From assembly GCA_035508495.1 (NCBI GenBank), contig DATJMX010000030.1, positions 33,894-97,893 of the forward strand: a DNA stretch of 64,000 nucleotides, given 5' to 3'. Shown here piece after piece: positions 47,819 through 58,286 of this stretch. A program made the translations under genes and the position numbers. Within the stretch, counting starts at the first letter, position 1. The number at the start of each line of letters is the position of its first letter. This DNA comes from Candidatus Binataceae bacterium. Its GTDB lineage: Bacteria > Desulfobacterota > Binatia > Binatales > Binataceae. Under the pieces are notes generated by a model, which was given only the letters and a program-made list of their open reading frames with translations, did no database searches and was not told the origin of the DNA.

Positions 47819-48463
47819 TTGCAGGTGCGGGTAGGACTGTTCGGCGGAAGTTTCAATCCCATTCATCTCGGACACTTGCGCTCGGCTGAGGAAGTGCGCG
47901 AGGCGCTGAAGCTCGACCTGATTTATTTCATCCCGGCCGCCTCGCCGCCGCATAAGGCGGAGGGCGATCTCGCCCCCGCCGAGCATCGCCTGGCGATGGT
48001 GCGCCTCGCGACCAAGGGCAATCGCCATTTCATGGTCTCGGATATCGAGGTGCGGCGCATGGGGCGCTCGTTCACGATCGAGACCGTCCGCTACTTCAAC
48101 TCGACGCTCCGTCAGCCCGCGCCGCTCTACCTTATGATGGGGATGGATCAGTTCAACGAATTCGACACCTGGCGCGAGGCCGACGAGCTCGTGCGGCTGT
48201 GCAATCTCGCCGTTCACACAAGATTAAACGAGGAGCAGGACGGGCCGTCGCGAATTTCGGTTGCCACGCTCGATCGCTTTGGCTACAGTCGCAGTGACGA
48301 TCACTACGTGCATCCGAGCGGAAACACGCTTTCTTTCGTTCAAACCACTTTCCTTCCTATTTCTGCCACCGCGATCCGCCACAAGCTCCAGCAAGGCGAG
48401 TCGATCAACTATCTCGTGCCCGGCGATGTCGTCGATTATATCAAGCGCCACGCGCTCTACTGA
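47819..48463 (+). CDS. nadD: nicotinate-nucleotide adenylyltransferase
   Basis: GLFGGSFNPIHLGHL (HxGH nucleotidyltransferase motif). Confidence 0.85.
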   Translation: MQVRVGLFGGSFNPIHLGHLRSAEEVREALKLDLIYFIPAASPPHKAEGDLAPAEHRLAMVRLATKGNRHFMVSDIEVRRMGRSFTIETVRYFNSTLRQPAPLYLMMGMDQFNEFDTWREADELVRLCNLAVHTRLNEEQDGPSRISVATLDRFGYSRSDDHYVHPSGNTLSFVQTTFLPISATAIRHKLQQGESINYLVPGDVVDYIKRHALY

Positions 48464-48544
48464 GGTTTAGGAACTGGGTATTCCCCGCCAATCCGTATCA
48501 GCCCTACATACCGCCGCGGCACGCAGCCGCAGCGAGAGGAAGCA

Positions 48545-48934
48545 GTGACAGCAATCGAAAAAGCCTATGCTGCCGTCGAGGCGGCACTGGACAAGAAAGG
48601 CTATGACCTGGGCGTGTTCGAAGCCGAGCATCTGAAATCGGTCGCCGACTATTTCATGGTCGTGACGGGACGCTCGGACGTTCAATGCCAGGCGATTGCG
48701 CGCGGAATCGAGGAACGCCTCGCCACCGCAGGCGCTCGCCCGCTTGCGATCGAAGGCTTTCAGCATGCGCACTGGATCCTGCTCGACTACGACGACGTCG
48801 TGGTCCACGTCTTCTACGAACCGGCAAGAGAATTCTACAGACTGGAGACCAACTGGCTCGACGCAAACGCAGTCCCGCTCCCGGAGCCTCTCAGCCGGCA
48901 AGCGAAGGAACTGCGTCTACACGCCAGCGGCTGA
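48545..48934 (+). CDS. rsfS: ribosome silencing factor RsfS (Iojap family)
   Basis: KKGYDLGVFEAEHLKSVADYFMVVTGRSDVQCQAIARGIEE...WILLDYDDVVVHVF; GTG start. Confidence 0.8.
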   Translation: MTAIEKAYAAVEAALDKKGYDLGVFEAEHLKSVADYFMVVTGRSDVQCQAIARGIEERLATAGARPLAIEGFQHAHWILLDYDDVVVHVFYEPAREFYRLETNWLDANAVPLPEPLSRQAKELRLHASG

Positions 48935-48956
48935 TTCCTGTCCCCGATCCTTCAAC

Positions 48957-48988
48957 CCCTCTCCCTGGTCAGGGAGCGGGATTTTCGG
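48957..48988. repeat. repeat family E copy (CCCCTCTCCCTGGTCAGGGAGCGGGATTTTCGG)
   Basis: Matches 32137-32175. Confidence 0.5.
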
Positions 48989-49077
48989 ACCTGGCGAAAG
49001 TGGGCCGGTTGTTCCGCGATGCGCGGGTCTGTTAGATGAATCCTTAGCGTTGTATCGAACGGGTCTGGGCGAAAATC

Positions 49078-50106
49078 GTGGATCATCATGAAATGGGCGC
49101 CAGCGCGGGCGACGTGACCGCGCCTTCTGCCGCCTTCGCCACCGGCTATGATGCCGCGACGAAGGCCGCAGGCGTGCGCGTGATGCGCGAGCGGATGGTC
49201 GTGCGCGTGGTCGGCGACGATCGCGTCTCGTTCTTTCACGGGATGTGCAGCGCCGATGTGAAAGGCGCATCGGCGGGATCGATACTGCCCGCGCTCTTTC
49301 TCACCGAGCATGCTCATGTGATCGCTGATCTCTTTATCTGGGTGACGGATGATTCGCTCCTGCTCGAAATCGACTCTGGTGCATGGCAACGTACGCGAGA
49401 GCATCTCGAACGACTGCTCGTCGCAGACGATGTTGAGTTCGAGGATACAGACCTTGCCGTCATCGACGTCGAGGGTCCGCGATCATCCGATACTGCCGCG
49501 CTCCTCGGCGCTCGCGATGCATCGTCGCCGCAATCATGGCGCTATCTGCCAGTTAACGAATTGCTGATCGGCAACCTGCCGCGGGTTGGATCTCCTGCGT
49601 TCACGATTCTCGCGCCTGTGGAGCGTGCGGATTCGATCGCCGCGAAAATCATTGCGGCGATTCCGGGCGCGGCCGCGATCGATGATGCCGTCGTCGAAAC
49701 GCTACGCATCGAAAACGGTCTCGCGCGTGCCGGCGTCGATACTGGCGAGAAGACGCTCGCGCTCGAGGCTCGCCTCAATCGCGCGATCTCATTCAACAAG
49801 GGATGCTACCTGGGCCAGGAAACGATCGAACGTGCGACCGCGCGTGGAGCATTGAAAAAGCAGCTCTTTGTGCTTAAGTTTCCCGCCGGAAAGATTCCGC
49901 CCGCGGGCGCGGCGCTGATGCTCGACGGCAAGGAAGTTGGGCGTGTGACGAGTACGGCGATTTCGCCGCGCGCAGGCACAATTGGCCTCGCGATACTCCA
50001 TCACAGCGCATGGGCCGCGGGTACGAAACTCAGCCTCGACGGCGACGGCGACGCCGCGATCGTTGGTGACATCCCCTCGCAATCGAGCGGACGAATGTTA
50101 GATTGA
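49078..50106 (+). CDS. ygfZ: folate-binding Fe-S cluster repair/tRNA-modification protein YgfZ (GcvT-like)
   Basis: NKGCYLGQETIERATARG matches the YgfZ KGC(Y/F)xGQE signature. Confidence 0.7.
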   Translation: MDHHEMGASAGDVTAPSAAFATGYDAATKAAGVRVMRERMVVRVVGDDRVSFFHGMCSADVKGASAGSILPALFLTEHAHVIADLFIWVTDDSLLLEIDSGAWQRTREHLERLLVADDVEFEDTDLAVIDVEGPRSSDTAALLGARDASSPQSWRYLPVNELLIGNLPRVGSPAFTILAPVERADSIAAKIIAAIPGAAAIDDAVVETLRIENGLARAGVDTGEKTLALEARLNRAISFNKGCYLGQETIERATARGALKKQLFVLKFPAGKIPPAGAALMLDGKEVGRVTSTAISPRAGTIGLAILHHSAWAAGTKLSLDGDGDAAIVGDIPSQSSGRMLD

Positions 50107-50150
50107 ATCATGCTTTCACGCCGCCAGCGTGAAAACAGGGAGTTGAAAAG

Positions 50151-50294
50151 ATGGCTAACACTCTTGGAAAGCGATACATGTGCGAGAAGTGCGGTACCGA
50201 GGTACTCTGCAACAAGGCCGGCACCGGCGAGTTCGAGTGTTGTGAAGTGCAGATGAAGATCAAGGAGGCCAAGCCGCTTCCATCTTCCGACTGA
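50151..50294 (+). CDS. desulforedoxin-like small metal-binding protein (47 aa; below the ORF-track threshold)
   Basis: MANTLGKRYMCEKCGTEVLCNKAGTGEFECCEVQM fits the desulforedoxin pattern VYxCxxCGxxV...GGTLxCCGxxM (CxxCG ... CC); AGGGAG RBS 8 nt upstream. Confidence 0.55.
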   Translation: MANTLGKRYMCEKCGTEVLCNKAGTGEFECCEVQMKIKEAKPLPSSD

Positions 50295-50333
50295 CGTAGT
50301 GGAACCGCCCGCGTAATGCGGACGGCGTGGTGA

Positions 50334-51899
50334 TTGCCGCAAGTGACATCGACGCCTGGGAAGGCCGACCTGGTGCTGCATGAGGGCGTGGTCCTGGGAC
50401 ATCCAGGCAGCGACTCGGTAGCACTCGGCGGCGGATTTATCACGGCTCACGGCTCGTACTCGGATCTAAAGTCGGTGGTGGGTCCTCGCACCCACCTCAT
50501 CAAGCTCGCTGGCCGCGTCGTGGCGCCAGGTCTCGTCGATTCGCATCTGCATTTCTTCGAGGCCGCAGCGGTCACGACCGGAGTCTCGATTCAGCGCTGC
50601 CAGACGATCAAGGACCTCCTCGCGGACCTGCGCGTGGCTGCGGGCCGCACTCCGCCCGGCAATTGGCTGCGCGCCTTCGGATGCGATGAGGCGCTGCTCG
50701 CCGAGAAACGCGGACCGACGCGCGCCGAGCTCGACCTCGCGATTCCGAAAAATCCCATTCGCCTGCGCCATCAGACGCTCCACGCCTCGTGGCTCAATTC
50801 CCGCGCGATCAATCTGCTCGGCCTCGAAGCTCCGGGCTTCGCGCCGCCCGAGGGTGCGACGATCTACACCGATGCTGCGGGGAAGCCGAGCGGCCTCGTG
50901 CTCGGGATGGAAGAATGGATCACGCGGCATCTGCCGCTGGTGACCAAAGCCGAGGCTGAGGCACGCGCGCGCACGATGAGCCGCGAGCTATCCGCCGCCG
51001 GCGTGACCGCGTTCACCGATGCGACCTCGCGCAACAGTGCCGTCGAGGTGGAAGCGTTTGCGAAGTACGTGCAATCGGGCTCGATCTGCCAGCGCGTTGG
51101 CGTGATGATCGGCGCGCCGCATCTCGATTCGGCTGAGCAAGCGTCCGCACTCGCAAACGCCGCCGGCATGCGGCTGGCGGGCGCCAAGTTCATGCCGGGC
51201 GCGGGCTACGATGGTGAGGCCACTGTCTCTTTGACAGCGCAGGCAGCGACGATGGGCCTCGACTGCGCGTATCACGTCACCGAAGTCGAAGAACTCGAGC
51301 AGGCGCTCCTGGCGATTGAAGCGACCCGGCCGACGCTCACCGAAGCGCAGATGCCGGTTTTTAGAATCGAGCACGGCGGCACGATTCCGCCGAACTATAT
51401 CGATCGAATCACCGCCAGCGGCGCGTGGGTGGTGACAAATCCCGGCTTCGTTTATTTTCGCGGCGCCAAGTATCTCGCCGATCCCGGCATGGTGCCTCAT
51501 CTCTATCGCGCCGAGAGCCTGCGCAAGGCTGCGATTCATCTCGCGGGCGCGACAGATGCGCCTGTCACTCCGGCGCGCCCGCTGGCCGCGATCGCCGCCG
51601 CGATCTCGCGCACGACGGTGCAGGGCAAGGAGTTCGGGCCTAACGAAAAGATTGCGCCCGACGAGGCTTTCGCGATGTTCACCCGCGCGGGCGCTCGCTT
51701 GGCGCGGCTTCGCGCAGGTGTGATCGAGCCGGACAATCTTGCGGACTTGATCGTCCTGCCGCGCGACCCGACGACGCTCAAGCCCGCCGACCTGATGAAC
51801 ATGCAGGTCGATCTGACGATCGTCGGTGGACGCGTTGTCTATGAGCGCGGCCGTCCTGCGGTCGCCAATAGCGACAGCGCCGATCTCCATTCAGCCTGA
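50334..51899 (+). CDS. amidohydrolase-family metal-dependent hydrolase
   Basis: PGLVDSHLHFFEAA (HxH) and downstream His/Asp ligands; Amidohydro_3-like length. Confidence 0.7.
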   Translation: MPQVTSTPGKADLVLHEGVVLGHPGSDSVALGGGFITAHGSYSDLKSVVGPRTHLIKLAGRVVAPGLVDSHLHFFEAAAVTTGVSIQRCQTIKDLLADLRVAAGRTPPGNWLRAFGCDEALLAEKRGPTRAELDLAIPKNPIRLRHQTLHASWLNSRAINLLGLEAPGFAPPEGATIYTDAAGKPSGLVLGMEEWITRHLPLVTKAEAEARARTMSRELSAAGVTAFTDATSRNSAVEVEAFAKYVQSGSICQRVGVMIGAPHLDSAEQASALANAAGMRLAGAKFMPGAGYDGEATVSLTAQAATMGLDCAYHVTEVEELEQALLAIEATRPTLTEAQMPVFRIEHGGTIPPNYIDRITASGAWVVTNPGFVYFRGAKYLADPGMVPHLYRAESLRKAAIHLAGATDAPVTPARPLAAIAAAISRTTVQGKEFGPNEKIAPDEAFAMFTRAGARLARLRAGVIEPDNLADLIVLPRDPTTLKPADLMNMQVDLTIVGGRVVYERGRPAVANSDSADLHSA

Positions 51900-52645
51900 T
51901 GCCGGAATCATCCGCCGACGCGGTTCTCTATGAGAAGCGCGGCCCCATCGCATGGGTCACGCTCAACCGCCCCAAGCAGTACAACGCTTACAACGTAGCG
52001 ATGCGCGACGCGCTGTTCGGCGCGCTCAACGCCGTTCACGACGACCATGAAGTCCGCGCGATGGTGCTCTGCGGCGCGGGCTCGGCGTTCTCGACCGGCG
52101 GCGACCTCGCCGAGTTCGGATCCGCGCCGTCGCCGACCGTCGCGCGATGGGTCCGCTTTCGCCGCGACGTGTGGGGCACGATGCGCTCGTTGCCGATCCC
52201 GACGATCGCCGCGATTCACGGCTTTACGGTAGGCGGCGGGCTCGAGATGGCGCTCATTTGCGACTTTGCCATAGCTGCCGACGATACGCGGATTTGTCTG
52301 CCCGAAACCGGCTCGGGAATGATCCCCGGCGTCGCGGGAACGCAGACCGCCTCGCGCCGGCTCGGGCTCAGCCGCGCTCTCGATCTCTGCATCACCGGCC
52401 GTTGGATTGACGCGCAAGACGCGTTACTTGTAGGTTTGGTCGCCGACGTGGTGCCGCTCCCGGACCTCGAGCGCCGCGCCCTCGAAATGGCGCACGCGGT
52501 GGGTCGCCTGCCCCGCGAAACCTCCGCAATGTTGAAGCTTGCGGTGTGGGGTGGGCTGGAGTTGCCGATGCGGGACGGCCTCGAACTCGAACGGCATCTG
52601 GCGAAACGCCTTGAACAGATTACGGCGCGGGTTGCCCGCGGCTGA
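51899..52645 (+). CDS. enoyl-CoA hydratase/isomerase (crotonase) family protein
   Basis: ITLNRPKQYNAYN...RAMVLCGAGSAFSTGGDLAEF...GFTVGGGLEMALICDFAIAADDTRICLPE. Confidence 0.8.
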   Translation: MPESSADAVLYEKRGPIAWVTLNRPKQYNAYNVAMRDALFGALNAVHDDHEVRAMVLCGAGSAFSTGGDLAEFGSAPSPTVARWVRFRRDVWGTMRSLPIPTIAAIHGFTVGGGLEMALICDFAIAADDTRICLPETGSGMIPGVAGTQTASRRLGLSRALDLCITGRWIDAQDALLVGLVADVVPLPDLERRALEMAHAVGRLPRETSAMLKLAVWGGLELPMRDGLELERHLAKRLEQITARVARG

Positions 52646-52701
52646 AATCCGTTCGCCTCGCCATTGGATTGAATTGAAGCGCTCAGGAGGCTTCGCGGTT
52701 A

Positions 52702-54249
52702 GTGAACACGGTTAACTTCGTAACGATTCCGTCCGCTATCGTACCCGACCAGGAAATCCTGGTTTTCGGCGAAAAGCGGCTTAACTTTGCAGAGCTTGCC
52801 GAGCGAGTGGGGCGTCTTTCCACCGCTTTCAAGCAGTTCGGACTCGGCCAGCGCGACGTGGTTGCCGTGCTGGACACCAACTCGGACCTCTATATCTCGT
52901 GCTACTACGGCGCGGCCAAGGCGGGACTAACGTTCCTGCCGCTAAACTACCGGGCCAAGGAAGCCGAGCTCGAGTACATGATCAATACCGCGGCCGCCAA
53001 GGTCCTGCTGGTCGGCGATCGCTATCTCGATCTCGTTGCGAAGCTCCAGCCCAAGCTCAAGGTCGAGCAGATCGTGGCGATGGGCGACGGCCGGAACGGC
53101 ATGCCGCGAATCGGCGAGATCATTGCGAAGTCGGATCCCGACGAGGGCGAAGCAGAAGTCGATGACGAGGACACCTCGATCCTGATGTACACGAGCGGTA
53201 CCACGTCGCTGCCCAAGGGCGTGATGCTCTCGTTCCACGACTTCACCGCCTACGTGACGGCGAATGTCGATATGGCCGACGGCACCGATCGCGGCACGGC
53301 GCTCGTGTGCGTGCCTTTTTACCATATCGCCGGGACCACGGCGTACATGTCGAATGTCTGGACCGGCAGGCGCCTCGTTATTATGCCGCAGTTCGATGCG
53401 AAGACGTGGCTCGATCTCGTTCAGAAGGAGCACGTCACGCATGCCTTCGTCGTCCCGACGATGATGAAACAGCTTATCGACGATCCCGCCTTCGCCAAGA
53501 CCGATCTCACGAGCCTGACCAACGTCGCCTACGGCGGCGCGCCGATGCCGGTGCAGGTAATCCGTCGCGCGATCGAGGTCTTTCCCAAGACTGTCGGGTT
53601 CGTGAACGCATATGGCCAGACTGAGACGACCTCCTCGCTGACGGTGCTCGGCCCCGACGACCATCGGATTCAGGGCACGCCCGAGGAAGTCGAGCTGAAG
53701 CTGAAGCGCCTCAATTCGATCGGCAAGCCGCTCCCCGACGTCGAGATTCGCGTGCGCGACGATGACGGCGCGTTCCTCGATATCGGCAAGATCGGCGAAA
53801 TCGTGATTCGTACGCCGCGCATCATGAAGGGCTACGCTGGGCGCGAGGATGACGCCAAGCTCGCCGACGGATGGCGCGCGACCGGCGATCGCGGCTGGAT
53901 CGACGACGACGGCTACGTGTTCTTCGCCGGCCGCAAGGACGACATGATCATCCGTGGCGGCGAGAATATCGCGCCCGCCGAAATCGAGTCGGTGCTGATG
54001 AGCCATCCGGGTGTCGATGAGTGCGCGGTCATCGGTATCCCGTCGGTGGAATGGGGTCAGACGGTCAAGGCCTTCGTCGTTCCTCGCAAAGGCGCGAAAG
54101 TTACCGAGGAAGATCTCAGCGAGTATTGCCGCAGCCGTCTTTCGAGCTTCAAGCGGCCCGAAACGATCGAGTTTATCGACGAGCTGCCGAAGAATCCGCT
54201 CGGCAAGATCCTGCGCAAAGATCTGCGCGCCGCTTCCGGAGAGATCTGA
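52702..54249 (+). CDS. AMP-dependent acyl-CoA synthetase/ligase
   Basis: AMP-binding motif ILMYTSGTTSLPKGVML, YGQTETT, GWRATGDRGWIDDDGYVFFAGRKDDMIIRGGENI, and a C-terminal lysine region. GTG start with AGGAGG RBS. Confidence 0.85.
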   Translation: MNTVNFVTIPSAIVPDQEILVFGEKRLNFAELAERVGRLSTAFKQFGLGQRDVVAVLDTNSDLYISCYYGAAKAGLTFLPLNYRAKEAELEYMINTAAAKVLLVGDRYLDLVAKLQPKLKVEQIVAMGDGRNGMPRIGEIIAKSDPDEGEAEVDDEDTSILMYTSGTTSLPKGVMLSFHDFTAYVTANVDMADGTDRGTALVCVPFYHIAGTTAYMSNVWTGRRLVIMPQFDAKTWLDLVQKEHVTHAFVVPTMMKQLIDDPAFAKTDLTSLTNVAYGGAPMPVQVIRRAIEVFPKTVGFVNAYGQTETTSSLTVLGPDDHRIQGTPEEVELKLKRLNSIGKPLPDVEIRVRDDDGAFLDIGKIGEIVIRTPRIMKGYAGREDDAKLADGWRATGDRGWIDDDGYVFFAGRKDDMIIRGGENIAPAEIESVLMSHPGVDECAVIGIPSVEWGQTVKAFVVPRKGAKVTEEDLSEYCRSRLSSFKRPETIEFIDELPKNPLGKILRKDLRAASGEI

Positions 54250-54299
54250 CGCCGCGCCGAGCTAAAGCCGCCGCAAAGCGGAAAACTCGCCCAACCACC

Positions 54300-55034
54300 G
54301 TGGCCGGTGCGGTCGAGGTCGCACTCGCCAACGGATGCGTAACGGCGACGCTCAACTTCGGCGACGCGCGCGCAATCCTCGACGAGACGATGGCTGCTTC
54401 GCTGCTCGAGGTCTTCGAGCAGGTCGAGGACGATGACGACATCCGGATGCTCGCGATCACGGGCAGCGGCGCGAATTTCTGCCGCGGCTTCGAGCGCAAT
54501 TGCGATGCGCGCCTGGTCGAATCGCTCGCGGTTATCTCGAAACCTACCGTCGCGATTATCAACGGCTTTGCGATTGACGAGGGCCTCGAGCTCGCGATGG
54601 CGGCTGATATCCGCATCGCGCTTGGCGCTGCGCGCCTGGCGATGACGCAGCTGAATCGAGGCGAGCTGCCGCGCTTCGGTGGCACGCAGCGACTGCCAAG
54701 GCTCGCGGGTGCTGCGAATGCGCTCCGCATGATGCTCACGTCGGCCTCGATCGACGGAAACGAGGCGGCGCGAATCGGCCTCGTCAGTTACCTCGCCAAC
54801 GGCCATGTGCAGCTCGCTCAGATCTCAGCGCAGGTCGCTCAGGCTATAATAAGTCGTGCGCCCGTCGCGGCGCGGCTGGTCAAGGATGCCGTCCTCAAGG
54901 GCTACGACATGACGCTCGACCAGGGCATCAGGCTTGAGGAAGATCTCTATGCCCTGCTACAAACGACAGCCGACCGCGCCGAGGGCGTGCGGGCGTTCCT
55001 GGAAAAACGCAAGCCGCTCTTTCGCGGCGCGTGA
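54300..55034 (+). CDS. enoyl-CoA hydratase/isomerase family protein (second copy)
   Basis: GSGANFCRGFE, KPTVAIINGFAIDEGLELAMAADIRIA and RAFLEKRKPLF. GTG start chosen at 54300 to avoid overlapping the ligase; start uncertain. Confidence 0.65.
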   Translation: MAGAVEVALANGCVTATLNFGDARAILDETMAASLLEVFEQVEDDDDIRMLAITGSGANFCRGFERNCDARLVESLAVISKPTVAIINGFAIDEGLELAMAADIRIALGAARLAMTQLNRGELPRFGGTQRLPRLAGAANALRMMLTSASIDGNEAARIGLVSYLANGHVQLAQISAQVAQAIISRAPVAARLVKDAVLKGYDMTLDQGIRLEEDLYALLQTTADRAEGVRAFLEKRKPLFRGA

Positions 55035-55073
55035 TCGATGATTACTACATTCCTGAAGGAGTTCCGGTTCACG

Positions 55074-55193
55074 ATGCCTAATCAGCTTGGAAAAGTTTAT
55101 ATCTGCGGCAAATGCGGCTCGCAGGTAATTGTCACCAAGGGCGGCACCGGCGCACTCAAGTGCTGCGGCGCCCCGATGGAACAGAAGAAATAG
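55074..55193 (+). CDS. desulforedoxin-like small metal-binding protein (39 aa; below the ORF-track threshold)
   Basis: MPNQLGKVYICGKCGSQVIVTKGGTGALKCCGAPMEQKK; compare D. gigas desulforedoxin [30 protein letters not shown] from memory. GAAGGAG upstream. Confidence 0.6.
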   Translation: MPNQLGKVYICGKCGSQVIVTKGGTGALKCCGAPMEQKK

Positions 55194-55211
55194 GCGAGCA
55201 GGAGGCGCTGC

Positions 55212-55871
55212 ATGGACGCTGAAGCTTTCGTCCGGCAATTGGTCTCCGAAAATGACGAAATCCTGCGCCGACTCGCGCCTGCCCAGGCCCTCAAGGCCGA
55301 AAGCGGCGGCGACCTGAATCCGCAGCGGCTGCTGCGTATCGCGCTCAAGAACGAGATCGAAGCGAGCGAGATCGCCGCGCTCTGGATGCCGCACGCTGCT
55401 GGCGCCGAGCTGAAGCTCGCGCTCGCGCGGCAGGCGGGTGACGAGGCGCGGCACTATCGGCTTATCGAAGAGCGCCTCCATGCGCTCGGCGACGATCTGG
55501 CGGGCTACGATCCGCTCGCGCCGGGCTACAGCCCGATGTTCCAGTTTCTCGCGGGGCTCAAGTCCGACGTTGAGCGCGTCGCGGCGGGTCAGTTCACGCG
55601 CGAGGCGATCGCACTCGCGCGTAACGCGCAGTTCATCGAACTATGCGATATGACCGGAGACCACCAGACGGCGCGCCTCTACCGCGACGTGATCCAGCCC
55701 GACGAGCGCTTCCATCATGAGCTCGGTGTGCGCTTCCTGGAGCGGCTGGCGACCGGCGACGAGGCGCAGGCGCTCGCGCAAGGCGCGCGGGCGCGCACGA
55801 TCGAACTGGCCGAGGAACTGCAGACGCTCGCCTTCAAGCGCAGCGGGATTCATCACGCTCCCGGCTGTTGA
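55212..55871 (+). CDS. ferritin-like superfamily protein with putative di-iron carboxylate site
   Basis: All-helical, with paired E...ExxH motifs (EIEASE...DEARHY and REAIA...ERFHHE) spaced as in di-iron four-helix bundles. Confidence 0.5.
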   Translation: MDAEAFVRQLVSENDEILRRLAPAQALKAESGGDLNPQRLLRIALKNEIEASEIAALWMPHAAGAELKLALARQAGDEARHYRLIEERLHALGDDLAGYDPLAPGYSPMFQFLAGLKSDVERVAAGQFTREAIALARNAQFIELCDMTGDHQTARLYRDVIQPDERFHHELGVRFLERLATGDEAQALAQGARARTIELAEELQTLAFKRSGIHHAPGC

Positions 55872-55901
55872 TCGCGGGCCGACCGGCGCGAGTTAACCGC
55901 G

Positions 55902-56507
55902 ATGGAAAACGTCCACGACAACAGCACCATAATCAGCGAAGTATTCACTGCGCTATGCGCGAGCGATCTCAGAAAGGCGCGCTTCACGATCAAGGACAAG
56001 TACGAGTTCCAGCTCGTGACGCCCGCGACGCGTGTATACAGCGAGGTCGAGCTGCTCTCGGTCTTCATGCGCGACGGCTTTATCGATCGCTACTCGCCCA
56101 ATCGCCAGCGCCTGATGTTCCCGGGAGTCCTGCGGCTGCTGTCACATTTCATGCCCGATTTGTTCCCCTTCGATCCGCATTGGAAACTCTCCGAATGCCA
56201 TATCGCCTACTGGGAGCTGATGCCGACGATTGACCATCGCGTGCCGGTCGCGCGCGGGGGCGTCGATGCGGAATCGAACTGGATCACGACCTCGCAGATT
56301 CGCAACAGCGCCAAGGGCGCGTGGACACTCGAGGAACTCGGATGGAAAGAGCAGCCGCCCGGAAACCTCGCCGAATGGGACGGGCTGATGGCGGCATTCG
56401 TCGATTACTTCGACAAGAACCCGCCGCTCGCCGAGGAGCCCTCCCTGAAAACGTGGCGCGATGCGGTCGCCGCATGCGAAACCAATCGCGCCAAACAACC
56501 CGCCTGA
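55902..56507 (+). CDS. HNH (His-Me finger) nuclease-like protein
   Basis: CHIAYWELMPTIDHRVPVARGGVDAESNWITTSQIRNSAKG resembles an HNH motif (DH...GG...N...N). Confidence 0.4.
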   Translation: MENVHDNSTIISEVFTALCASDLRKARFTIKDKYEFQLVTPATRVYSEVELLSVFMRDGFIDRYSPNRQRLMFPGVLRLLSHFMPDLFPFDPHWKLSECHIAYWELMPTIDHRVPVARGGVDAESNWITTSQIRNSAKGAWTLEELGWKEQPPGNLAEWDGLMAAFVDYFDKNPPLAEEPSLKTWRDAVAACETNRAKQPA

Positions 56508-56526
56508 GACAGCAGCCGGAGAATCG

Positions 56527-56760
56527 ATGATCGCAACAATAGTGATCGGTCTCGTCGCAGGATGGCTCGCCGGCATCCTGATGCGCGGCAGCGGCTACGG
56601 AATGTTCGTCGACATCCTGCTTGGCCTGATCGGCGCAGTGATCGGCCGCTGGATCTTCGCAACGCTCGGAATCGCCGCAGTAGGCGGCCTCGGCTACCTC
56701 GCGATGTCCACGGTAGGCGCCGTGGTTCTGGTAGCGATCACGCATCTGTTCCATCGCTAG
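56527..56760 (+). CDS. GlsB/YeaQ/YmgE-family small stress-response membrane protein
   Basis: MIATIVIGLVAGWLAGILMRGSGYGMFVDILLGLIGAVIGRWIF matches this family. Confidence 0.7.
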   Translation: MIATIVIGLVAGWLAGILMRGSGYGMFVDILLGLIGAVIGRWIFATLGIAAVGGLGYLAMSTVGAVVLVAITHLFHR

Positions 56761-56820
56761 CGATGCGGAGGCTCCGAGCCTTTCCGTCGCCCATTTAAAT
56801 CGTTGGCCGCGATCGAGTCC

Positions 56821-56930
56821 GTCATCCAGAGCGGTGACCGCGAAGGATCTCGGAGGCCCCGAAGGGGCCGGCACCGGTAAGCGCGCGAAGCGCTTTCCTT
56901 AAGCGCGATCTATCGCGAGAAAACGCTTAA
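56821..56930. repeat. repeat family C copy (CGTCATCCAGAGCGGTGACCGCGAAGGATCTCGGAGGCCCCGAAGGGGCCGGCACCGG...) with CTTAAGCG/CGCTTAAG inverted tail
   Basis: Matches 9517-9592 and 27101-27270; its 5' end matches the partial copy at 28998-29013. Confidence 0.6.
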
Positions 56931-57023
56931 GGGTTGGACGCGAACAAGAAAGCTCGAACTGATCCAAACAACCAACCCGGCGATGGCCGATCTCAGTCCC
57001 GCATTGGCATAGAATACTGGACG

Positions 57024-58286
57024 ATGCGGTTTCACTTCGTGCACGCACGAATCTTTCTTGCACTCGCGATCGTGGTGGCGTTCTCAATCGCGCCCGCACC
57101 AGCGCACGCCGACACCCTCGCGGATCGCGCGGGGCAGCTTGCCGATGCTGCGTTTGTGATGCTCAATTCGCTCAACAATGCGGAGGCCGGCAAGTACAGC
57201 GGCGGGCCGCTGCTTGCGCCTACCGCTGAACTCGCGAGCAATGCGCAGGCGCTCGCTTCGGCAGTGAAATCCGGCGATACCTCGGGAGCGCGGCATGCGA
57301 TGGCCGCGATCGTTCGCGACCAGGGCACGATTGAGCCGCTCACCAATGGCATATCGCCCACAATTCTCGCCGAATGGGGTTCGCTGAAGACCCAGATCGC
57401 GTTGGTACAGAAAGAGGTGCCGCCCGAGCAGGGTGCGCCGCCTTCGATTCCGGCTGCATCTGAACCTCCTGCCGAATCACCGCCGCCGGTCGGCTCGGCG
57501 CCGGTATCGAGTCACGCCAGCGCACCGCAAATCGTGATCGACAAGCGCACTTCAAATCCCGAAGACGATTCGCTGACCGTGCATGGCTTTATCCAGGGCA
57601 CCGATCTCAAGGACGCCGGGATCTATCAGGGTGGCCGCAAGCTCAAGGATATCGAGGTCGCGAGCGTGCACGGTGAGCAGCGCCTCAACTTTACCTTCAA
57701 GATCAATGATCCCGAGCCCGACCAGTACATCAGTGCGACGGATATCGAGGGCCGCCAGGCGAGCGCCAGTATCACGGGCGATTCGAGCGCCCCGTCATTA
57801 GCACCGCCAGCGAGCGAAGCGGGCGGTGCGTCCGAAGCGGGAGTCGCACCCGAAGCGGGAGAGGCGCCGACGATCGGAGGCTCGGACAGCAGCACGGCCG
57901 AGATTTCACCGTCGGGCGGTCCCGAGCTTTCACCCGAGCCCACCCGCCGCCTGACTGAGCTTGGCAACGTGCAAATCAATATCGCGATGATCCGGCGCTC
58001 GCCGACCGCGACCAATGAGTACGAAGTGAGCGGCCAGATCGTTGGCAACGTGACGCGCGCCGGAATCTACGCCGGCGGCCGCATGATCAAGCAAATCCCG
58101 CTGATCCCCGGCGGCTTCAGCAACTTCGACGTGACCTTCTCACGACTCGGCCGCAAGAATATCGCGATTCGCGCCTACGGACCCGGCAGCGACTTCGTCG
58201 AGCAGCCTCTCGCCCCGGGCGCCGGTATCTCGACCTTCAGCAACGCCCGCCCGTCGAGTCCATATCCTTACGGTGCCGCCCCCTAA
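57024..58286 (+). CDS. secreted protein with Pro/Ala/Ser-rich linkers and two internally repeated beta-domain modules
   Basis: Signal MRFHFVHARIFLALAIVVAFSIAPAPAHA. Repeats HGFIQGTDLKDAGIYQGGRKLKDIEV...FTFKI and SGQIVGNVTRAGIYAGGRMIKQIPL...FDVTF. Confidence 0.5.
   Translation: MRFHFVHARIFLALAIVVAFSIAPAPAHADTLADRAGQLADAAFVMLNSLNNAEAGKYSGGPLLAPTAELASNAQALASAVKSGDTSGARHAMAAIVRDQGTIEPLTNGISPTILAEWGSLKTQIALVQKEVPPEQGAPPSIPAASEPPAESPPPVGSAPVSSHASAPQIVIDKRTSNPEDDSLTVHGFIQGTDLKDAGIYQGGRKLKDIEVASVHGEQRLNFTFKINDPEPDQYISATDIEGRQASASITGDSSAPSLAPPASEAGGASEAGVAPEAGEAPTIGGSDSSTAEISPSGGPELSPEPTRRLTELGNVQINIAMIRRSPTATNEYEVSGQIVGNVTRAGIYAGGRMIKQIPLIPGGFSNFDVTFSRLGRKNIAIRAYGPGSDFVEQPLAPGAGISTFSNARPSSPYPYGAAP

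Follow-up and report, generated by a model that had tools for sequence, protein, structure and literature searches.

Desulforedoxin (Dx) of Desulfovibrio gigas is a homodimer of one gene product. MbtH-like proteins (70-100 amino acids, aa) are small partners of the adenylation enzymes of non-ribosomal peptide synthetases (NRPSs), and the DUF35 proteins (zf-ChsH2 plus OB fold) act as scaffold of thiolase/HMG-CoA synthase and of steroid side-chain complexes. The window analysed here, i.e. the whole stretch of 64,000 nt from a Candidatus Binataceae bacterium (contig DATJMX010000030.1, positions 33,894 to 97,893), encodes two very small proteins with the Dx fold. These open reading frames (ORFs), Dx1 (ORF1, 47 aa) and Dx2 (ORF2, 39 aa), are located at the two ends of a run of genes for the catabolism of coenzyme A (CoA) esters. 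Dx1 and Dx2 are distinct, co-conserved paralogues that are adjacent in most genomes and fused in others. Their genes lie next to those of one particular clade of acyl-CoA ligases, or of a CoA-transferase that substitutes for the ligase, usually together with a complementary pair of crotonases (ECH1 and ECH2). That the two proteins form a heterodimeric, non-catalytic accessory subunit of the ligase/crotonase set of the operon is given an even chance.

Two paralogues, adjacent or fused

The proteins can be divided into two types. The tailed type, represented by Dx1, contains the segment EVLC[NT]K with a fifth Cys and has an invariant end, ...[KR]-P-[LI]-P-S-[SA]-D (...KPLPSSD in Dx1). The short type, represented by Dx2, contains ...VIVT[KR]GG... 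and ends with ...ME.KK. Both window proteins possess the ligand set Cys11/14/30/31, to which Dx1 adds an extra Cys20. They share the pattern [KR/V]-Y-x-C-x-K-C-G ... G-T-G ... C-C, and the desulforedoxin signature that a preliminary description of the window had claimed for both is thus present in each. The same description had called them paralogues, in agreement with the identity of 49% between ORF1 and ORF2.

The metagenome scan with the alignment of the tailed type yielded 496 confirmed relatives, of which 80 loci were kept; in the GC-rich loci, the gene calls combine the public ones with a choice based on GC3. In 69 of the 73 metagenomic loci having upstream sequence (related organisms are included in this and the following locus counts), the short type immediately precedes the tailed type, and the gap between them has a median of 18 nt. 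An exhaustive profile search with the tailed type returned 1067 cluster representatives at E <= 1e-3. Many of the best 150 profile matches are natural fusions of 80-113 aa, in which the short type is joined by a linker to the tailed type. The fused form is carried by Rhodococcus, Streptomyces, sphingomonads and a betaproteobacterium. In the model of one such fusion (P0322, pTM 0.71), both domains are confident and Dx-like, the linker is disordered and the best PDB match is 1DXG_A. The Dx-fold models (of ORF1 and of P0322) superpose on 1DXG with a root-mean-square deviation (rmsd) of 0.4-0.6 A.

Adjacency and fusion are classical evidence of joint action, and the two proteins are therefore taken to act as one unit. 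As the D. gigas protein is a homodimer and the two types are paired or fused here, the simplest inference is a Dx1/Dx2 heterodimer. The bracketing of the operon is a lineage-specific layout of a pair that is adjacent or fused elsewhere; the two operon ends are occupied only in Binataceae-like genomes. The assumed rarity of stand-alone proteins of this kind outside sulfate reducers is not borne out: the 1067 cluster representatives of the tailed type alone derive from soils, sediments and cultured aerobes (Rhodococcus, Streptomyces, Sphingomonas).

Two further architectures were observed in the tailed family. In the first, an N-terminal domain of approximately 60 residues without family match precedes a tailed Dx-type domain. 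Its members (105-118 aa; P0373, P0383, P0386, P0390, P0395 and others) are detected by Pfam as PF06397 only, and the one genomic context that was retrieved (L182) is uninformative. In the second, P0364 (L185, positions 99-341 of a 576-bp contig), a Dx1-like domain with 'EVLCNK' is joined to a superoxide reductase domain (PF01880); it is known from this one short contig and may be chimeric.

ORF1 and ORF2 are real genes under purifying selection. Across approximately 20 Binataceae species, the pN/pS values are 0.139 (ORF1) and 0.119 (ORF2), with some 70% of the differences at third codon positions. Close homologues number 126 for ORF1 and 81 for ORF2, the 39-aa query of the latter having been lengthened by two upstream residues. 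The conservation that the preliminary description had proposed to check is borne out by this selection and by homologues across phyla. The region does contain many spurious overlapping ORFs on both strands, as would be seen if the two were chance Cys-rich frames in GC-rich DNA and not genes. However, the probability of this explanation is negligible: a pN/pS of 0.12-0.14 with third-position bias, hundreds of homologues across phyla, the Pfam and structural matches and the genes annotated in cultured genomes all speak against it, and it is excluded by the conservation data.

Both peptides are members of the desulforedoxin fold. ORF2 reaches 35.1 bits with the Pfam family PF06397 (threshold 23) and 29.5 bits with TIGR00319 (cut-off 36). 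In the search with the desulforedoxin domain, proposed earlier for both peptides, ORF2 thus passes with PF06397 but not with TIGR00319, and ORF1 remains under the PF06397 threshold (18.6 bits, E 1.5e-3). Many close homologues of ORF1 carry a precomputed PF06397 match. Compared with the PDB sequences, both ORFs match desulforedoxin and the desulfoferrodoxin N-domain best (1DFX and 1DXG at E ~5e-4 for ORF2). In an alignment that includes D. gigas Dx, four Cys, one Tyr and two Gly are invariant, and C11/C14/C30/C31 align with the Cys of Dx. The AlphaFold2 model of ORF1 (pLDDT 86.5) has 1DXG_A as its top PDB match with a probability of 1.00, a TM-score of 0.94 (normalised to the target) and an rmsd of 0.6 A, followed by the desulfoferrodoxin N-domains. 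The tail is modelled with a pLDDT of 75, the core with 84-93. The second Cys pair is an adjacent C-C and not the C-x2-C of rubredoxins, and PF00301 gives no match at E <= 0.01. Pfam and NCBIfam hold no dedicated curated family, since searches of them yield PF06397, TIGR00319 or nothing, also for the fused forms; a precomputed PF26435 tag on P0023 was not reproduced in the profile search.

The coordinates and the + strand reported earlier for both ORFs are confirmed from the sequence. They had been described as unannotated: they are indeed missed by a 60-aa ORF track, but both are called genes in public assemblies, under the names 'hypothetical protein' or 'desulfoferrodoxin-like iron-binding protein'. 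The relatives of the window are 'Candidatus Binataceae' metagenome-assembled genomes (MAGs), and the window contig itself derives from a soil metagenome (ENA). An in-frame upstream ATG creates a 51-aa variant of ORF2 (55038-55193, + strand), annotated by NCBI in one MAG (P0121). The likely start of ORF2 is 55074, because the conservation of the family starts at M-[AP]-N-Q. Shine-Dalgarno-like sequences precede both starts (Table 1); the reported spacing of AGGGAG stands, but that of GAAGGAG is 12 nt and not 13.

Ligases, crotonases and genomic contexts

In several phyla and arrangements, orthologues of ECH1, ECH2, the ligase and the amidohydrolase accompany these two types. This recurrence supports the tie of both ORFs to the CoA operon that they bracket, which had been proposed from the window alone. 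The synteny with these genes had likewise been suggested as a check, and the pair and the CoA genes are found together in an order that varies by lineage. An ECH gene lies within 5.5 kb in 19 of the 35 loci with at least 3 kb upstream, compared to 0 of 59 control loci.

Two related sub-clades can be recognised among the partner ligases; identity amounts to 45-58% inside one, 49-57% inside the other and 34-41% between the two. The window ligase is 45-58% identical to the ligases of loci with a Cys-containing unit, 38-40% to those beside Cys-less fused units and 26% to an unrelated ligase in the locus of Rhodococcus sp. DK17, which itself is 26-33% identical to the partner ligases.

The two crotonases have degenerated in a complementary way. 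In ECH1 the oxyanion segment and both catalytic Glu are intact, and the usual C-terminal helix ('EG..AF.EKR.P.F.G') is missing. In ECH2 this helix is kept; its N-terminal CoA/oxyanion segment is degenerate or deleted, and in place of the second catalytic Glu it has Gln in the window, the orthologues having Gln or His. Orthologues in the other module loci are 42-58% (ECH1) and 39-48% (ECH2) identical, and the complementary decay is kept across phyla (window, L094, L135, L166, L178). Because of this complementarity, the sequences suggest that ECH1 and ECH2 may be an obligate hetero-oligomeric crotonase. The closest solved relative of both is 3-hydroxypropionyl-CoA dehydratase (5ZAI).

The presence of an adenylate-forming enzyme directly beside the unit also brings to mind a carrier or acceptor protein. 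In this case, the ...P-S-[SA]-D tail of Dx1 would be covalently loaded or modified by that enzyme, similar to LysW or a scaffold peptide, and the amidohydrolase would release the product. The tail is flexible, with an invariant terminal Asp and a nearly invariant Ser, and the split-type and L178 modules include an amidohydrolase. However, most contexts lack an amidohydrolase, the crotonases require CoA thioesters, and the 3-oxoacid-type CoA-transferase of type A (see below) points to ordinary small acyl-CoA substrates. An ATP-grasp or peptidase partner is missing as well. As for LysW-type carriers, the LysW match is insignificant (E 0.97), the tail reads PLPSSD and no ATP-grasp gene occurs in any examined context. 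A carrier role is considered improbable.

Several arrangements can be distinguished. In the split type, that of the window, the order is YgfZ-like gene, Dx1, amidohydrolase, ECH1, ligase, ECH2, Dx2. It is preserved in 21 Binataceae species and also in L158 and L171. The split type also occurs in L094 (6889-13872 of the 5.0-Mb circular contig ERZ25072076), with other flanks and no ferritin-like gene: a Glu dehydrogenase, a Rieske protein and a flavin reductase are found upstream, and BolA and glutaredoxin (Grx) downstream. The Dx-bracketed cassette of L094 is thus flanked by three genes of the Fe-S trafficking type, a YgfZ-like gene on one side and BolA and glutaredoxin on the other.

These flanks could also be read as the actual partners, the mini-proteins being grouped with Fe-S trafficking genes for iron or Fe-S handling and the CoA genes being merely inserted. 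A YgfZ-like gene (with KGCYLGQE) is found directly upstream of Dx1 in all split-type loci (L158, L171 and L175 among them), and BolA and Grx directly downstream of Dx2 in L093-L095. Yet no YgfZ, BolA or Grx gene is present in the type A, B or C, fused or plasmid contexts, where the pair is adjacent or fused. The link to ligase and ECH is far more general, and the Cys-less forms are incapable of Cys4 iron binding. Grouping for Fe-S handling is therefore regarded as very improbable.

In type A the order is ECH2, ECH1, subunits A/B of a 3-oxoacid-type CoA-transferase, Dx2, Dx1 and a FabK-like gene; it is found in an Acidobacteria MAG and in many metagenome contigs. In the type A locus L135, the CoA-transferase subunits A/B match TIGR02429 and TIGR02428, and FabK (TIGR03151) remains below the cut-off. 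Type A was also considered as a steroid C/D-ring module (IpdAB/IpdC/EchA20, KstR2) and rejected, as the L135 proteins match no Ipd-specific NCBIfam model. Type B has the order ECH2, ECH1, ligase, Dx2, Dx1. In type C, seen on low-GC contigs, the pair stands alone among housekeeping genes.

The fused form shows similar surroundings. In the betaproteobacterial MAG the order is ECH, ECH, fused unit, Amidohydro_3, ligase; in L176 a Cys-less fused unit is followed after 3 nt by the ligase and then by ECH. In L180 the fused unit lies inside a cluster of APH, DUF35, thiolase and acyl-CoA dehydrogenase genes, and APH genes often adjoin the fused form. A tblastn search located the fused form on 19 megaplasmids, from cultured strains of Rhodococcus, Streptomyces, Sphingomonas/Sphingobium and Mycobacterium, where it is named 'hypothetical protein' wherever the match has an annotated feature. 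Cultured carriers of the ~100-aa gene are, for example, Rhodococcus sp. DK17 (pDK3, WP_016881672.1), R. opacus DSM 44186 (WP_120662016.1) and Sphingomonas paeninsulae (WP_121151289.1). In 10 of the 11 annotated plasmid loci, the fused gene is located on the same strand and 2-60 nt from an AMP-binding/class I adenylate-forming enzyme. A separate operon on the Acinetobacter pittii plasmid pApiHUM1c (L197) consists of SDR, acyl-CoA dehydrogenase, APH kinase, ECH, thiolase, a gene of the nitronate monooxygenase family, ECH and acyl-CoA synthetase. Its enzyme set resembles that of type A and of the actinobacterial contexts; no Dx-like small gene is annotated in it.

In the window, the genes named earlier as bracketed (amidohydrolase, crotonase, acyl-CoA synthetase, crotonase) are confirmed as Amidohydro_3, ECH, AMP-binding ligase and ECH (Table 1). 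The gaps along the run from Dx1 to Dx2 measure 0-78 nt, all on a single strand. Scans of 48400-57200 revealed no promoter-like site and no Rfam element, and terminator-like hairpins only inside genes; the absence of a promoter or intergenic terminator fits one operon, although it proves nothing. The amidohydrolase has an alternative TTG start at 50334. Its orthologues in the L094 and L178 modules are 34-35% identical, and its PDB relatives are uncharacterised ones only.

Table 1. Position of the two Dx genes and of the neighbouring features in the window.
Feature	Position	Strand	Description
YgfZ/CAF17-like folate-binding protein	49093..50106	+	Pfam GCV_T, GCV_T_C, CAF17_C; contains KGCYLGQE
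AGGGAG, Shine-Dalgarno-like	50137..50142	+	read from sequence; 8 nt to Dx1 ATG
Dx1 (ORF1, tailed type)	50151..50294	+	47 aa: MANTLGKRYMCEKCGTEVLCNKAGTGEFECCEVQMKIKEAKPLPSSD
Amidohydro_3 metal-dependent hydrolase	50373..51899	+	508 aa; PF07969 E 2.6e-65; public gene call
ECH1 crotonase	51899..52645	+	domain match and alignment
AMP-binding acyl-CoA ligase	52702..54249	+	PF00501, PF13193
ECH2 divergent crotonase	54300..55034	+	alignment
GAAGGAG, Shine-Dalgarno-like	55055..55061	+	read from sequence; 12 nt to Dx2 ATG
Dx2 (ORF2, short type)	55074..55193	+	39 aa: MPNQLGKVYICGKCGSQVIVTKGGTGALKCCGAPMEQKK; ends ...PMEQKK
Ferritin-like (DUF455-like) protein, putative diiron site	55212..55871	+	219 aa; starts 18 nt after Dx2

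The ferritin-like gene follows Dx2 in 21 of 21 Binataceae loci. Its product scores 32 bits with DUF455, below the threshold, and contains invariant E48, E78-x2-H81, E131 and E165-x2-H168 and an equally invariant 'HHAPGC' at the C-terminus. Homologues number more than 4298, with 57-65% identity across Binataceae, Methylomirabilota/Rokubacteria, Terriglobia and Limnocylindria, and a sequence search found no relative with a solved structure. Outside Binataceae, all 59 of 59 homologues lack a Dx-like ORF within 8 kb. Dx2 as an obligate partner of the ferritin-like protein is rejected on these 59 homologues and on the L094 lineage, which has no ferritin-like gene. The ferritin-like gene is a lineage-specific neighbour outside the conserved module. 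Further downstream, 55902-56507 (+) encodes a 201-aa protein without family match except for a weak HNH motif (PF01844 E 0.03; 'DHRVPVARGG...N'), which is kept after the ferritin-like gene in close relatives.

Metal ligands and the proposed accessory role

Three ligand sets occur in the tailed family: C-x2-C...C-C, C-x2-C...C-H and none at all. P0393, P0402, P0411 and P0421 exemplify the last set, as do the Rhodococcus proteins encoded at L186 and L187. Within the 150 best profile matches, all fully ligand-less forms exceed the length of a single domain and nearly all are two-domain fusions, and the single-domain forms always retain C-x2-C plus C-[CH]. The Cys-less members retain GKRY, the tail and the gene context. 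Invariant in all forms are G-K-R-(Y) and the terminal Asp, and the Ser two residues before this Asp is nearly so. Because Cys3His and ligand-free relatives exist, the metal is not constant in the wider family.

A dedicated role in electron transfer or metal handling had been suggested for the two proteins, and electron transfer is not supported by the genes found beside them. No redox enzyme belongs to the conserved core, which consists of ligase or CoA-transferase plus crotonases; the ferritin-like gene is absent from other lineages with the module, and many ligand-less fused homologues keep the neighbourhood. Since no redox enzyme is shared by all contexts, a role other than electron transfer is likely to be the conserved one, with the metal chiefly stabilising these tiny domains.

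An electron carrier would nevertheless account for part of the data. Here, the two would be rubredoxin-type Fe(Cys)4 proteins that serve a lineage-specific redox enzyme, namely the ferritin-like protein in Binataceae and a FabK-like flavoenzyme elsewhere. Rubredoxin-type centres reduce diiron enzymes, and desulforubrerythrin, in which a Dx domain is fused to rubrerythrin, offers a precedent. In Binataceae and in the type A-C loci, both types always possess the four Cys; their fold is identical with that of Dx, and Fe-binding proteins give the best matches. In addition, Dx2 adjoins the ferritin-like gene in 21 of 21 Binataceae loci, the ferritin-like protein displays an E/ExxH/E/ExxH pattern, and a FabK-like gene comes after Dx1 in type A. 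However, the 59 ferritin-like homologues outside Binataceae have no Dx-like ORF nearby, and the L094 lineage contains the whole module without the ferritin-like gene. Beside the unit, a redox enzyme is missing from type B, L176 and most plasmid loci, and no reductase for the Dx pair is encoded in any neighbourhood. Cys-less and Cys3His variants occur in the same context, and the most conserved residues (GKRY and the terminal S-x-D) are not ligands. An electron carrier is consequently judged unlikely, if a serious candidate.

For the accessory subunit to which an even chance was given above, the following picture can be drawn. Dx1 and Dx2 would be the halves of one small two-domain unit that arose from a duplicated desulforedoxin fold. 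Their heterodimer would be pseudo-symmetric and mimic the homodimer of D. gigas desulforedoxin, each half being stabilised by its own Cys4 metal site (Fe or Zn). It would bind the ligase and/or the ECH1/ECH2 complex as activator or scaffold, with docking via the basic L-G-K-R-Y patch and the acidic, flexible Dx1 tail ...K-P-L-P-S-S-D. The metal sites would be structural, or at most sensing, with no obligatory electron relay, which would explain how fused homologues can drop all Cys without losing the tail or the neighbourhood.

Several observations weigh against this accessory role. The heterodimer and its docking are inferred from gene order, fusions and a single-chain model. With related organisms among them, the loci counted are not independent. 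The pair alone (type C) accounts for 16 of the 35 loci with enough flank, and the partner is therefore not always encoded nearby. At one plasmid locus, L195, a ligase is not found beside the unit. In type A the ligase gives way to a CoA-transferase and thus cannot be the partner in every lineage, and the gene of a FabK-like FMN enzyme follows the pair. Finally, both window proteins retain their four Cys, and the gene of a putative diiron protein starts 18 nt after Dx2, which leaves some probability to a redox role in the window.

Comparison with known systems

Both the fold and the Pfam family have been described before. No description seems to exist of the sub-family with its pairing, fusions and tail, of its metal-free members or of the association with acyl-CoA ligases and crotonases: the literature search found no paper in which desulforedoxin is connected with enoyl-CoA hydratase, with heterodimers or with the PLPSSD motif. 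If the accessory role is true, a redox-centre fold of anaerobes has been re-used, duplicated, split, fused and metal-stripped as an accessory subunit of CoA-ester catabolism in widespread soil aerobes. A role would thereby be assigned to an unnamed family of no fewer than ~1000 sequence clusters, all of them annotated 'hypothetical'. The small partner may then be required when these ligases and crotonases, which belong to catabolic clusters in the degraders Rhodococcus sp. DK17 and R. opacus, are expressed heterologously. Genes of 40 aa, below the cut-offs for ORF length, can be integral parts of an operon.

The proteins resemble D. gigas desulforedoxin (1DXG; PF06397) in their size (~36-47 aa), in the C-x2-C...C-C motif with adjacent Cys, in the Tyr before the first Cys, in the G-x-G turn and in the predicted fold. 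In contrast to the Dx homodimer, two co-conserved types are present here, adjacent or fused. The tailed type adds an invariant C-terminal tail of 10 residues and often a fifth Cys, and the family includes Cys3His or ligand-free members. The genomic partners are CoA ligases and crotonases instead of the redox proteins of sulfate reducers. The centre-I N-domain of desulfoferrodoxin/2Fe superoxide reductase (1DFX, 1VZG, 2JI1) comes out best in the PDB by sequence and second-best by fold. However, no superoxide reductase domain is present in the window or in any module locus, and the proteins here are stand-alone, paired and tailed.

A functional counterpart may be LvaB from the levulinate operon of Pseudomonas putida. 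As described in PMC6692424, which cites Rand et al. 2017, LvaB (PP_2792) is a 12-kDa hypothetical protein that pulls down with the LvaA kinase, and a ligase, an SDR, an acyl-CoA dehydrogenase and an APH-type kinase are encoded in the operon as well. By this description, LvaB is similar in size to the fused form and is a hypothetical protein required with an enzyme of a CoA-ester catabolic operon, which makes it a possible relative of the Dx-like family. The window contains neither an APH nor an acyl-CoA dehydrogenase gene, and the likeness is one of description. A search for lva-like operons via the APH gene returned no small partner in the two plasmid loci inspected.

The DUF35 proteins provide a functional analogy as well, each being a small Cys4 zinc-ribbon, non-catalytic subunit of CoA-ester enzymes. 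Their fold is a different one, an OB domain is absent here, and the Dx-like unit is separate from the DUF35 genes of the clusters, which adjoin the fused Dx-like gene in L180, L186, L192 and L193.

The MbtH-like proteins have no sequence or fold relationship to the Dx-like unit, the partners of the latter are catabolic acyl-CoA ligases and sometimes a CoA-transferase, and its binding to them is putative. In functional terms the two may be alike: both are small, encoded directly beside an adenylating enzyme of the ANL superfamily and co-varying with the clade of that enzyme. Tentatively, and with some doubt, the unit with its fused and metal-free forms can be proposed as an unrecognised class of obligate small partners for a clade of catabolic acyl-CoA ligases and for heteromeric crotonases, i.e. 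a counterpart of the MbtH-like proteins, made from a duplicated desulforedoxin fold, whose Cys-containing forms might render the partnership redox- or iron-sensitive through their metal sites and which would dock via its invariant C-terminal Ser-x-Asp tail.

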